Virus record (IMG/VR): IMGVR_UViG_3300033121_001789
Coordinates: 1-64,000 of that record
Direction: 5' to 3' (one strand)
Length of the DNA stretch: 64,000 bases
Source of the DNA: a virus
Lineage: Duplodnaviria > Caudoviricetes
Shown: piece by piece, positions 2,847-4,464 of the stretch
Numbering within the stretch: the first letter of the stretch is position 1
Layout: every line of letters begins with the position of its first letter
The notes under the pieces: generated by a model
Told to the model about the DNA's origin: nothing
The model's input: the letters and a program-made list of their open reading frames with translations, nothing else
The model's database searches: none
Made by a program: the position numbers and the translations under genes

Positions 2847-3704
2847 TTAAAAATTTTCTCCATATTTCTCATACATTTTTATCCATTTTCGAATAGCATT
2901 ATCAGAAACATTATAAATTTTACCTGTTCCGACAAATCCATAATTTTTGATTTCTTCCAATAGTTGATTATACGGAGGTCTATTTGATTTTCTTTGCCTT
3001 TTTTGTGAGTTTATCTCCGAAATAGAAAATCCAAAATTTTGTTCCTTTTCTTTTTCGGTATTTATATCTCCTTTCTTTTTTCTATTTTTTAGTAGACCCT
3101 TATAACCTCTACAATGTGTCTCCAAAGAAGCATTACAATTCGGGCACAAAATTCTTAAATTTTCTATTCTATTATCTTTTGATATACCATTTATATGATC
3201 TAATATTAGAGATATTTTTTCACCTCTCCAATTTTCTGTTTGACCACATTTCTCACATATTTTTTGTTTTAAATTGTATTTATATAATTTTTCTTTCAAA
3301 TAATTACTTCCTATTATTGATCCATCAACCAACCAATATGATAATGGCTTTTCAACTTGATTATTATTTCGATTATTTTTCCATGGATCAAAATGTGAAA
3401 AATCTATATTACTTCTTTCGATAAATTTCTTTAAAACCTTATAAGACTTTCCAGATATTGATTTATTTAATTTTCTAAATACCTCAGCAAATGAAAAAGA
3501 ATTTTTCACAACATCATTTATCAAAGTAATATTGTAATATAAACTATCACTATCTACAATTAATCCTAGATTTTTAGCTTTTTTGTGTATAGATCCTCTT
3601 GTATGATTTGGCAACAAAGGTAATACATATTTAATCCCCCTATAATAATTATTGTTAAGTATGTCTATCTCACATTTTAGCCATTTGTTTCTACTTTTAG
3701 TCAT
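2847..3704 (-). CDS. HNH homing endonuclease next to the tRNA cluster
   Basis: CEKCG...LILDHINGISKDNRIENLRILCPNCNA; C-terminal HTH-like VSDNAIRKW. Confidence 0.9.
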   Translation of the reverse strand: MTKSRNKWLKCEIDILNNNYYRGIKYVLPLLPNHTRGSIHKKAKNLGLIVDSDSLYYNITLINDVVKNSFSFAEVFRKLNKSISGKSYKVLKKFIERSNIDFSHFDPWKNNRNNNQVEKPLSYWLVDGSIIGSNYLKEKLYKYNLKQKICEKCGQTENWRGEKISLILDHINGISKDNRIENLRILCPNCNASLETHCRGYKGLLKNRKKKGDINTEKEKEQNFGFSISEINSQKRQRKSNRPPYNQLLEEIKNYGFVGTGKIYNVSDNAIRKWIKMYEKYGENF

Positions 3705-3930: not shown

Positions 3931-4013
3931 TTGGTAGGGAGGGATTCGAACCCCCGAACTCCGAAGAGAACAGTTTTACAGACTGTCAGCTTTAACCACT
4001 TGCATACCTACCA
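3931..4013 (-). tRNA. tRNA-Tyr(GTA)
   Basis: Acceptor TGGTAGG/CCTACCA; ACAGT-CTGTAAA-ACTGT; type II variable arm CTC-TTCG-GAG; GGTTCGAATCC. Confidence 0.92.
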
Positions 4014-4022
4014 GTGTTGTTG

Positions 4023-4105
4023 TATCGCGTACGGGGATCGAACCCGTTCACATCTTTCGAATCCAGATTGAAAGTCTGGTGCCCTACCTAATAGGCGAAC
4101 GCGAC
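4023..4105 (-). tRNA. tRNA-Glu(TTC) with an atypically long variable loop
   Basis: Acceptor GTCGCGT/ACGCGAT; CCAGA-CTTTCAA-TCTGG; 15-nt variable region; T arm ACGGG-TTCGATC-CCCGT. Confidence 0.8.
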
Positions 4106-4110
4106 ATTTG

Positions 4111-4204
4111 AGGGAGAGGTGAGACTTGAACTCACTTACTGGGAAGTCCACTACGACAATTTGTTAACCAGACCTGTTTTACAGACAGGCGCCGTTACTC
4201 TCCC
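4111..4204 (-). ncRNA. D-armless tRNA-like RNA with GTA (Tyr) anticodon and enlarged variable arm
   Basis: Acceptor GGGAGAG/CTCTCCC; 8 nt in place of the D arm; CCTGT-CTGTAAA-ACAGG; about 37-nt variable region closed by CTGG/CCAG; GTGAG-TTCAAGT-CTCAC. Confidence 0.7.
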
Positions 4205-4220
4205 TTCTTTATTTTTTTTG

Positions 4221-4311
4221 TTGGAGTGGATGGAATCGAACCACCAAACAGGATCCATACGGCTTATTTCACTCTCTGTCAGGGCTTACGTGCCCCTGCC
4301 GATACACTCCA
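4221..4311 (-). ncRNA. second D-armless tRNA-like RNA with an irregular GTA-containing loop
   Basis: Acceptor TGGAGTG/CACTCCA; 6-nt connector; CAGGG-GCACGTAAG-CCCTG; about 34-nt variable region closed by ACAG/CTGT; GGTGG-TTCGATT-CCATC. Confidence 0.65.
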
Positions 4312-4315
4312 ATAT

Positions 4316-4354
4316 AAAAACAAAAAACCCAGTCAATGTTGACTGGGTTTTTTG
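4316..4354 (-). terminator. intrinsic terminator (attenuator) immediately upstream of the Tyr/Glu tRNA array
   Basis: Minus strand CAAAAAACCCAGTCAA-CA-TTGACTGGGTTTTTTG-TTTTT: perfect inverted repeat plus U tract. Confidence 0.9.
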
Positions 4355-4375
4355 CAAAAACTTTATATTCTTAAA

Positions 4376-4392
4376 CAAATAACTTAGCCAAC
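4376..4392 (-). promoter_or_regulatory. putative antiterminator strand overlapping the leader-peptide stop codon
   Basis: GTTGGCTAAGTTATTTG can pair at 14 of 17 positions (one G-U) with the terminator 5' arm CAAAAAACCCAGTCAAC. Confidence 0.7.
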
Positions 4393-4464
4393 TACGAACT
4401 TAGGTTCATACTCATATCCTTCATAAGAAGAAGTAAGAAGTGATATGTTGTTGTTATTAGTCAT
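4384..4464 (-). CDS. putative attenuator leader peptide, 26 aa: MTNNNNISLLTSSYEGYEYEPKFVVG
   Basis: Translated by hand; control run TAT GAA GGA TAT GAG TAT GAA; A-rich start context AAGTTAAATAAA-ATG; stop lies 29 nt before the terminator stem. Confidence 0.75.
   Translation of the reverse strand: MTNNNNISLLTSSYEGYEYEPKFVVG

Follow-up and report, generated by a model that had tools for sequence, protein, structure and literature searches.

Non-cloverleaf tRNA-Tyr(GUA)-like elements in the tRNA array of a huge phage belong to a conserved phage-borne family

Two tRNA-like elements behind a terminator

The window analysed here is a stretch of 64,000 nucleotides (nt), positions 1 to 64,000 of the IMG/VR virus record IMGVR_UViG_3300033121_001789 (Duplodnaviria; Caudoviricetes), which spans 109.9 kb (estimated completeness ~20%, GC ~28%). 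It contains an array of transfer RNA (tRNA) genes, and all array features discussed below lie on the minus strand. Behind a strong intrinsic terminator hairpin (4355-4320), the array harbours two adjacent tRNA-like elements, termed B (4311-4221, 91 nt) and A (4204-4111, 94 nt). We propose that A belongs to a class of tRNA-Tyr(GUA) that is conserved, carried by phages and does not adopt the cloverleaf, although the charging of A itself is doubtful, and that B, a diverged paralogue of the same fold, is a non-decoding derivative (probability roughly 0.6).

A sequence-only reading of the window had described perfect 7-bp acceptor stems, canonical T arms and large variable regions closed by 4 bp in both elements, and the parse confirms this anatomy, with linkers of 8 nt and variable regions of 37 and 35 nt. 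In A, the acceptor stem pairs 4204-4198 with 4118-4112, as found by both scan and parse. The 8-nt linker UAACGGCG (4197-4190) follows, which in our tentative canonical numbering comprises U8 and A9 (4197-4196), the segment ACGGC (4195-4191) and G26 (4190). The anticodon arm (4189-4173) has a 5-bp stem and the regular loop CUGUAAA, with the anticodon GUA at 4182-4180. In the 37-nt variable region (4172-4136), the variable arm (4171-4139) is closed by CUGG (4171-4168) and CCAG (4142-4139) around a 25-nt loop. Within this loop lies GUCGU (4157-4153), part of an invariant G-Y-C-G-U-A-N-U-G-G motif and the putative 5' strand of a rebuilt D helix, followed by AGUGG (4152-4148), which may represent a D-loop-like A14...G18G19 motif. 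The canonical T arm (4135-4119) leads into the 3' acceptor strand, and the discriminator at 4111 is a U, as the sequence-only reading had seen. The linker and the variable-arm loop can form five pairs including one G-U, with a duplex energy of -6.5 kcal/mol.

B starts 9 nt after the terminator hairpin and precedes A. The two are the first RNAs after the attenuator described below, as had been noticed before. Its RNA runs from 4311 to 4221, with a 7-bp acceptor stem, a T arm and the discriminator A at 4221. The linker UAUCGGCA includes UCGGC (4302-4298), with one change at an otherwise invariant A. The variable arm (4279-4248) is formed by ACAG (4279-4276) and CUGU (4251-4248) within the 35-nt variable region, and its loop carries GCCG-UAUGG (4263-4255), a shorter variant of the motif that is also found at the loci L330 and L395. 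Four Watson-Crick pairs connect CGGC of the linker with GCCG (4263-4260), at -7.5 kcal/mol compared to a shuffled mean of -3.7. The anticodon hairpin (4296-4281) is aberrant: a GGGGC/GCCCU stem closes a 6-nt loop, ACGUAA (4291-4286), without U33, and an alternative drawing yields the irregular 9-nt loop of the sequence-only reading. Around half of the positions differ between B and A, yet B keeps 7 of 7 acceptor, 5 of 5 T, 4 of 4 variable-stem and 4 of 4 long-range pairs. The changes are concentrated in the anticodon loop, which is otherwise invariant in the family. Given its 6-nt loop without U33, B very probably does not decode.

The elements are more than chance structures: when the two strands of the whole window were scanned for a T arm together with a 7-bp acceptor stem, only five matches emerged, each of them inside the tRNA array, with A and B among them. 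The D hairpin (positions 10-25) is missing in both elements, where only 8 nt separate the acceptor and anticodon stems. ARAGORN calls neither of them. The general tRNA model RF00005 reaches 33.8 bits on A in a small search only, stays below gathering in a scan of the whole window and does not match B. Among the Rfam 15 curated tRNA-like RNAs, none reaches its gathering score; the transfer-messenger RNA (tmRNA) model gives 8.9 bits for B. The tRNA-Sec model scores 23.3 bits against a threshold of 47, and the 7/5 geometry without a D stem-loop sets the elements apart from allo-tRNAs and tRNA-Sec-like RNAs.

A phage-borne family and its probable long-range helix

Sequences with the architecture of A were collected by pattern scans of viral contigs and metagenomes, followed by a script filter that demands acceptor and T geometry. 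This yielded 36 distinct sequences of 88-95 nt from contigs with a GC content of 0.22-0.48, some of which measure 345 and 640 kb. In the alignment of all 36 sequences (A2), the linker UAACGGC, the anticodon loop, the variable-arm motif AAAU-N-GYCGUA-N-UGG and the T loop are invariant or nearly so, the stems vary freely, and a variable stem of 3-5 bp encloses a loop of 22-25 nt. The family covariance model R1 scores A at 97.2 bits (E 5e-24) and aligns B over its full length at 47.4 bits (E 2e-10). A matches every family invariant but the discriminator: 35 of the 36 members carry A73, and U73 of A is the sole exception. Tyrosylation is reported to depend critically on A73 in all domains (PMC9976931), and a U in its place makes the charging of A doubtful.

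The proposed structure is supported by covariation throughout. In A2, pairing is possible in 98.9% of the cells, and both partners vary at 20 of the 26 pairs. The covariation score amounts to 0.666; shuffled alignments give 0.189 (none of 500 shuffles reaches the observed value), and alignments with slid partners do not exceed 0.157. The acceptor, anticodon, variable and T stems each covary strongly, with both-sided changes at four of the five anticodon-stem pairs and with variable-stem covariants such as CUGC/GCAG, CCGC/GCGG, CCUU/AAGG and CCAC/GUGG. The earlier argument that a shared architecture with differing primary sequence speaks against random decay is thus borne out by a 36-member family and its covariation.

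The long-range pairing between the linker segment ACGGC and the GYCGU strand of the variable-arm loop is possible in 36 of 36 sequences. The linker segment occupies the invariant or near-invariant columns 10-14 of A2, which are 100% paired with columns 49-53. At L086, which was retrieved by a structure-only scan, and in the crAss001-type members, ACAUC faces GAUGU, such that G-C and G-U pairs are replaced by A-U and U-A. At L708, ACGAU faces GUCGU, and both substitutions keep the pairing.

The same design occurs in eight class-I tRNAs, of the Ile type (UAU, GAU) and the Arg type (UCG, UCU and an ACG-like anticodon), which were collected without using the long-range pairing. Their sources are relatives, including LR745206, LR756502, L015 and L293. 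The genes lie at L015:5638-5718 (minus), L293:1138-1218, L210:10917-10996, L236:6009-6089 (minus), L782:1501-1579, L785:1501-1581 and L004:514-593 (minus); the Arg ACG-like gene at L119, with a linker as in B, forms only two of the three D pairs and is uncertain. These tRNAs have a 7-nt linker, no variable stem and a variable region of 24-25 nt carrying NCG-UA-R-N-GG. In these eight sequences, both partners vary at each of the three D pairs and 91.7% of the cells are able to pair, which supports the long-range helix independently. Since class-I Ile and Arg tRNAs share the rewired D helix, the design is not restricted to tRNA-Tyr.

Taken at face value, the term "D-armless" used in the sequence-only reading holds on the surface only: there is no D hairpin, but a D helix appears to be rebuilt as a pseudoknot between the linker and the variable-arm loop. 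An element that truly lacks a D arm, in the manner of mitochondrial tRNA-Ser(AGY), would leave the linker unpaired and might use the variable-arm loop as a protein-binding site. The near-invariance of the linker and the loop motif would also fit protein recognition. However, the compensatory changes at L086 and in crAss001, the pairing-preserving substitutions at L708 and the covariation at three of three class-I pairs favour linker-loop pairing, and we consider a genuinely D-armless RNA very improbable. The mitochondrial analogy drawn earlier does not fit a linker that pairs with compensatory changes.

Other folds were tried and rejected. An inner GUC/GAC hairpin within the variable-arm loop has a 3' side that varies (AC, UC, CC, UU, UG, AA) opposite a fixed GUC. 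The minimum-energy fold of A by RNAfold extends the acceptor by UAAC/GUUA, of which GUUA is not conserved in the family; the corresponding fold of B is no better than shuffles (z -0.46). Finally, the CUGUAAA hairpin could be drawn as a D-like arm and the large arm as an intron-bearing anticodon arm; the loop, however, is invariant and is the one found in genuine tRNA-Tyr, and the spacers agree with a class II tRNA-Tyr.

Further unusual copies were seen among the loci. The rewired gene at L708 (11421-11515, minus) has the anticodon loop CCGUAAA with C33 in place of U33, and its array also holds a 68-nt tRNA-Tyr call; after the window pair, this is the second instance of a rewired gene that deviates while another tRNA-Tyr is present in the array. 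At L312, two distinct rewired tRNA-Tyr genes occur. In the dense arrays of other carrier phages, at L312 (whole locus, minus) and at L309:900-1230, several tRNA genes are interrupted in the anticodon loop or close to it by 40-270 nt; these inserts are intron-like and may be of group I.

Genomic setting and distribution

A and B are surrounded by ordinary and less ordinary tRNA genes. Upstream of the terminator lie a tRNA-Met(CAT) gene (4735-4641) with a 23-nt insert inside the anticodon, between C34 and A35, a second tRNA-Met gene (4577-4497) with 10 extra variable-loop nucleotides, and a 26-codon leader open reading frame (ORF) rich in Tyr and Glu codons (4464-4384). A is followed by a tRNA with the anticodon UUC (Glu) and a long variable arm (4023-4105), and by a canonical class II tRNA-Tyr(GUA) with A73 (3931-4013), which is called by ARAGORN, reaches 52.1 bits with RF00005 and sits 100 nt downstream of A. 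Two tRNA-Glu genes come last in the array in the 5' to 3' direction. As a canonical tRNA-Tyr is present in the same array, A and B are redundant.

The closest public relatives of the window phage are LR745206 (635 kb) and LR756502 (642 kb), both uncultured huge phages. A search for relatives through the adjacent 143-amino-acid ORF found none, and no gene for tyrosyl-tRNA synthetase (TyrRS) was found in this virus record, which is ~20% complete. The variable arm of the UUC tRNA resembles that of class II tRNAs, with a short stem and a GAAA loop, which is unusual for tRNA-Glu; it is kept, with a compensatory change, in LR756502 (L002:2595-2679). An HNH-type ORF (2847-3704, minus) abuts the array, and at L015:6240-6840 (minus) a GIY-YIG homing-endonuclease-like ORF lies between a short tRNA-Tyr-like gene and a canonical tRNA-Tyr. 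The tRNA cassettes may be shuffled by mobile nucleases.

The insert in tRNA-Met has a counterpart at the same place in LR756502 (L002:2006-2108), which starts GTTTTTGATT and ends GAAGAA-like. The tRNA-Met gene is uninterrupted at L001 and L015, and the conserved mini-insert is far too small to self-splice. This insert bears on the idea that A and B are scrambled precursors, from which RNA cleavage and ligation would restore a canonical tRNA-Tyr by moving the D segment or removing an insert. Processing beyond RNase P may exist in these phages, as the conserved tRNA-Met insert suggests. On the other hand, this route would take two cuts plus two ligations, and the sequences show neither bulge-helix-bulge nor intron-like boundaries. 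Phages that differ greatly share one segment order, and it is in this unrearranged order that the stems covary. A scrambled precursor therefore ranks as the least probable of the explanations considered here.

The leader ORF and the terminator recur together in four phages (window 4320-4464, minus; L001:1712-1850; L002:2382-2535; L015:6990-7129, minus). With the 3' arm of the terminator blocked, its 5' arm finds a partner in the leader's 3' end in all four, and this alternative antiterminator fold covaries (GTTGGCT/AGTCAAC in the window; GTCAGAC/GTCTGAC and GTCAGT/ACTGAC in others). The arrangement looks like a translation-coupled attenuator in front of Tyr and Glu tRNA genes. No promoter-like site was found between the terminator and A or B, and the two elements therefore depend on read-through; they are probably made only when it occurs.

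In the nearest relatives, the slot behind the terminator is occupied differently. A tRNA-Tyr(GUA)-like short form of 63-68 nt is found at L001:1871-1938, at L015:6898-6960 (minus; the same as L279 and L299) and at L293:403-465. It combines the acceptor and T arm of A with an ACGGC or AUAGC remnant, a mini D hairpin of 4 bp and a 3-nt loop, and a 5-nt variable loop; the acceptor stem comprises 6 bp and a mismatch, the anticodon stem 4 bp, and compensatory changes occur between the phages. ARAGORN does not call the short form. At L002 the slot holds only a mini-helix remnant that ends in ACCA (L002:2560-2585). With a short form or a mini-helix remnant in the relatives, the slot is evolutionarily restless. 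The sequence-only reading would have yielded to relatives with normal D arms and no covariation, and the outcome is split: the nearest relatives carry a different, short tRNA-Tyr-like gene, and the architecture recurs, with covariation, in numerous other phages.

The family as a whole is a feature of phage tRNA arrays, in which 35 of the 36 member loci are located; 29 of the 36 are without a canonical tRNA-Tyr in the stretch examined. A consensus-like member matches 31 phage records, all of them crAss001-like Kehishuvirus and relatives infecting Bacteroides, and no annotated feature lies under the matches. A blastn search with A itself gave no match in the phage collection, and crAss001 was reached only with the consensus-like member as query. 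In crAss001 (MH675552.1), a cultured phage of Bacteroides, the family gene (4141-4235; 94.8 bits) is unannotated and fills a 170-nt gap between tRNA-Lys and tRNA-Phe. Prior to the addition of this gene, the crAss001 array serves 18 amino acids, and Tyr is not among them; the original description, based on ARAGORN, reported 25 tRNA genes for 17 amino acids (PMC6235969). No member was found in 151 sampled genomes of one bacterial order, where the best match is an ordinary host tRNA-Tyr; judging from the metagenome-assembled genome used as the centre of the sample, this order would be the Bacteroidales. A loop-motif scan of genome contigs revealed no family member among the matches listed (at least 120), which is no evidence of absence. 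A full-text search of the literature on D-armless or pseudoknotted phage tRNAs, together with reviews of non-canonical tRNAs, yielded no description of this design.

Possible roles of the pair and comparison with known systems

We argue that the class probably works as a tRNA-Tyr. The GUA loop with A37, the discriminator A73 in nearly all members, the class II-like variable stem, the intact acceptor/T half, the array context and the fact that the gene is usually the sole one for Tyr all point in this direction. The acceptor/T half is the part of a tRNA that is read by RNase P, the CCA enzyme and EF-Tu. The suggestion of a new structured class of non-coding RNA holds as far as the structure is concerned; on the same features of loop, discriminator and context, it is better described as a class of tRNA-Tyr.

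According to the proposed model, the acceptor stem would be followed by U8-A9, from where the chain would pass directly to ACGGC-R, which we equate with A21, positions 22-25 (the D stem's 3' strand) and R26, and on into the anticodon stem. The loop of the variable arm would supply the 5' strand of the D stem (10-13), followed by A14 and a G18G19-like element in the motif A-N-U-G-G, and would pair with the linker in a pseudoknot. In its acceptor/T half, its anticodon arm and the place of its variable stem, the molecule would agree with bacterial class II tRNA-Tyr. In canonical tRNAs, U8, A14 and A21 form a triple, and a jump from A9 to A21 is therefore sterically plausible. Members of the class would be released from transcripts of the array, receive CCA, be charged with Tyr by TyrRS and decode UAY codons. 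B would be a redundant copy that drifts, or else a mimic of tRNA-Tyr that does not decode.

Several observations weigh against this interpretation. A has U73, and B is without a usable anticodon loop. The four nearest relatives are without a full-length Tyr-type member. No B-like copy occurs in the 795 loci examined, a weak negative as most of these were ascertained via the normal Tyr loop. Most Tyr-type members were retrieved with patterns containing the linker or the loop motif, and the long-range helix there rests on few variants. The three-dimensional feasibility of the pseudoknot is a prediction from canonical tRNA numbering. Finally, the stretch is found in wastewater and activated-sludge runs that include three metatranscriptome runs of one study; these matches are at contig level and may stem from DNA.

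For the window pair, redundancy with drift and a switch to a non-decoding role both fit. Taken to its end, the first possibility implies that A and B are decaying, functionless pseudogenes of a rewired tRNA-Tyr, redundant with the canonical gene. The loss of A73 in A, of the anticodon loop in B and the instability of the slot, with the short form (L001, L015, L293) or the mini-remnant (L002) in the nearest relatives, are in line with this notion. Yet A matches all other invariants of the family at 97.2 bits, and B has kept every helix paired across its divergence from A, which is not expected under free decay; we therefore regard simple decay as unlikely.

Similarly doubtful is the view, which goes back to the sequence-only reading, that both elements are non-translational mimics of tRNA-Tyr. 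They would act as decoys or sponges for a defence nuclease directed at tRNA-Tyr, or as ligands of TyrRS or another tRNA-binding protein, and opening of the attenuator would yield them alongside the real tRNA-Tyr and tRNA-Glu. B, with its unusable anticodon loop, is the main candidate for such a role, and A, with U73, a weaker one. The deviations fall exactly on residues for decoding and charging (U73 in A; the 6-nt loop without U33 in B), the helices and the variable-arm motif are kept, and a canonical tRNA-Tyr is available for translation. Moreover, the PtuAB nucleases of Retron-Eco7 and Septu cleave tRNA-Tyr within its variable loop and are neutralised by overexpressed tRNA-Tyr (PMC12673091, PMC13096335). 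Against mimicry, the other family members resemble functional tRNA-Tyr and are mostly the sole Tyr genes of their arrays, such that the role would be special to the window phage; the lack of a conserved B-like sequence elsewhere among the 795 loci counts here as well, and no tRNA-Tyr-targeting system is known for the host.

A combination of sensor and toolkit is likewise conceivable, though improbable in our estimation. The Tyr/Glu attenuator would open upon a shortage of charged tRNA-Tyr or tRNA-Glu, such as under attack by a host tRNA nuclease; A would then provide a nuclease-proof substitute, B would soak up the nuclease as a mimic, and the pseudoknotted D/variable domain would defeat PtuAB-like enzymes. 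By analogy, a variable arm locked in a pseudoknot might escape nucleases that cut variable loops.

Outside animal mitochondria, translational tRNAs are taken to be cloverleaves, and gene finders assume so. Should the proposal that A belongs to a working, non-cloverleaf class of tRNA-Tyr be true, the L-shape would be reachable by another topology, with half of the D arm placed behind the anticodon arm, in a design seen for Tyr, Ile and Arg. Phage tRNA sets would be under-annotated, crAss001 would gain a tRNA-Tyr, and a natural scaffold for the engineering of orthogonal tRNAs would be at hand. The rewired design may also serve counter-defence, as nucleases that act against phages are known to attack tRNA-Tyr in the variable loop. 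The window pair, located behind a Tyr/Glu attenuator and beside a normal tRNA-Tyr, is a good place to tell decoding, decoy and decay apart.

The closest known relative of the rewired class is the class II tRNA-Tyr(GUA) (RF00005), represented in the window by the canonical gene downstream of A. Both have a 7/5 branch of acceptor and T stems and the anticodon loop CUGUAAA; A73 is common to them as far as the family is concerned, and in both the variable stem starts 1 nt after the anticodon stem and ends 3 nt before the T stem. In contrast to the D hairpin of class II tRNA-Tyr, the rewired class appears to use a pseudoknot with a strand in the 22-25-nt loop of its variable arm.

The tRNA-Tyr of the phages T5 and SP15 resists PtuAB of Retron-Eco7 through a distinctive variable loop (PMC12673091, PMC11555353, PMC13096335). 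It is likewise phage-encoded, and its variable region departs from that of the host, which provides a plausible selective reason for remodelling. It has a normal cloverleaf with a longer variable loop, however.

Animal mitochondrial tRNA-Ser(AGY) (PMC4013460, PMC7609411) also carries a short linker in place of the D arm. Yet it has no replacement helix and no long variable arm, and it needs adapted partners, whereas the rewired class would possess a rebuilt helix and operate in bacterial translation. The allo-tRNAs, including (8/4) tRNA-Ser and tRNA-His, and the tRNA-Sec-like RNAs of bacteria and phages (Mukai et al., PMC5389517) resemble the rewired class in being non-canonical, in occurring in phage tRNA clusters and in their long variable arms. 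However, these RNAs are cloverleaves of 8/4 or 9/3 geometry with a long D stem, while A and B are 7/5 RNAs without a D hairpin. The circularly permuted tRNA genes of Cyanidioschyzon merolae (PMC3978253), finally, also have a non-canonical order of segments in the gene. There, processing restores a canonical tRNA, whereas in the rewired class the acceptor ends are in normal order and the rearrangement is seemingly kept in the RNA.

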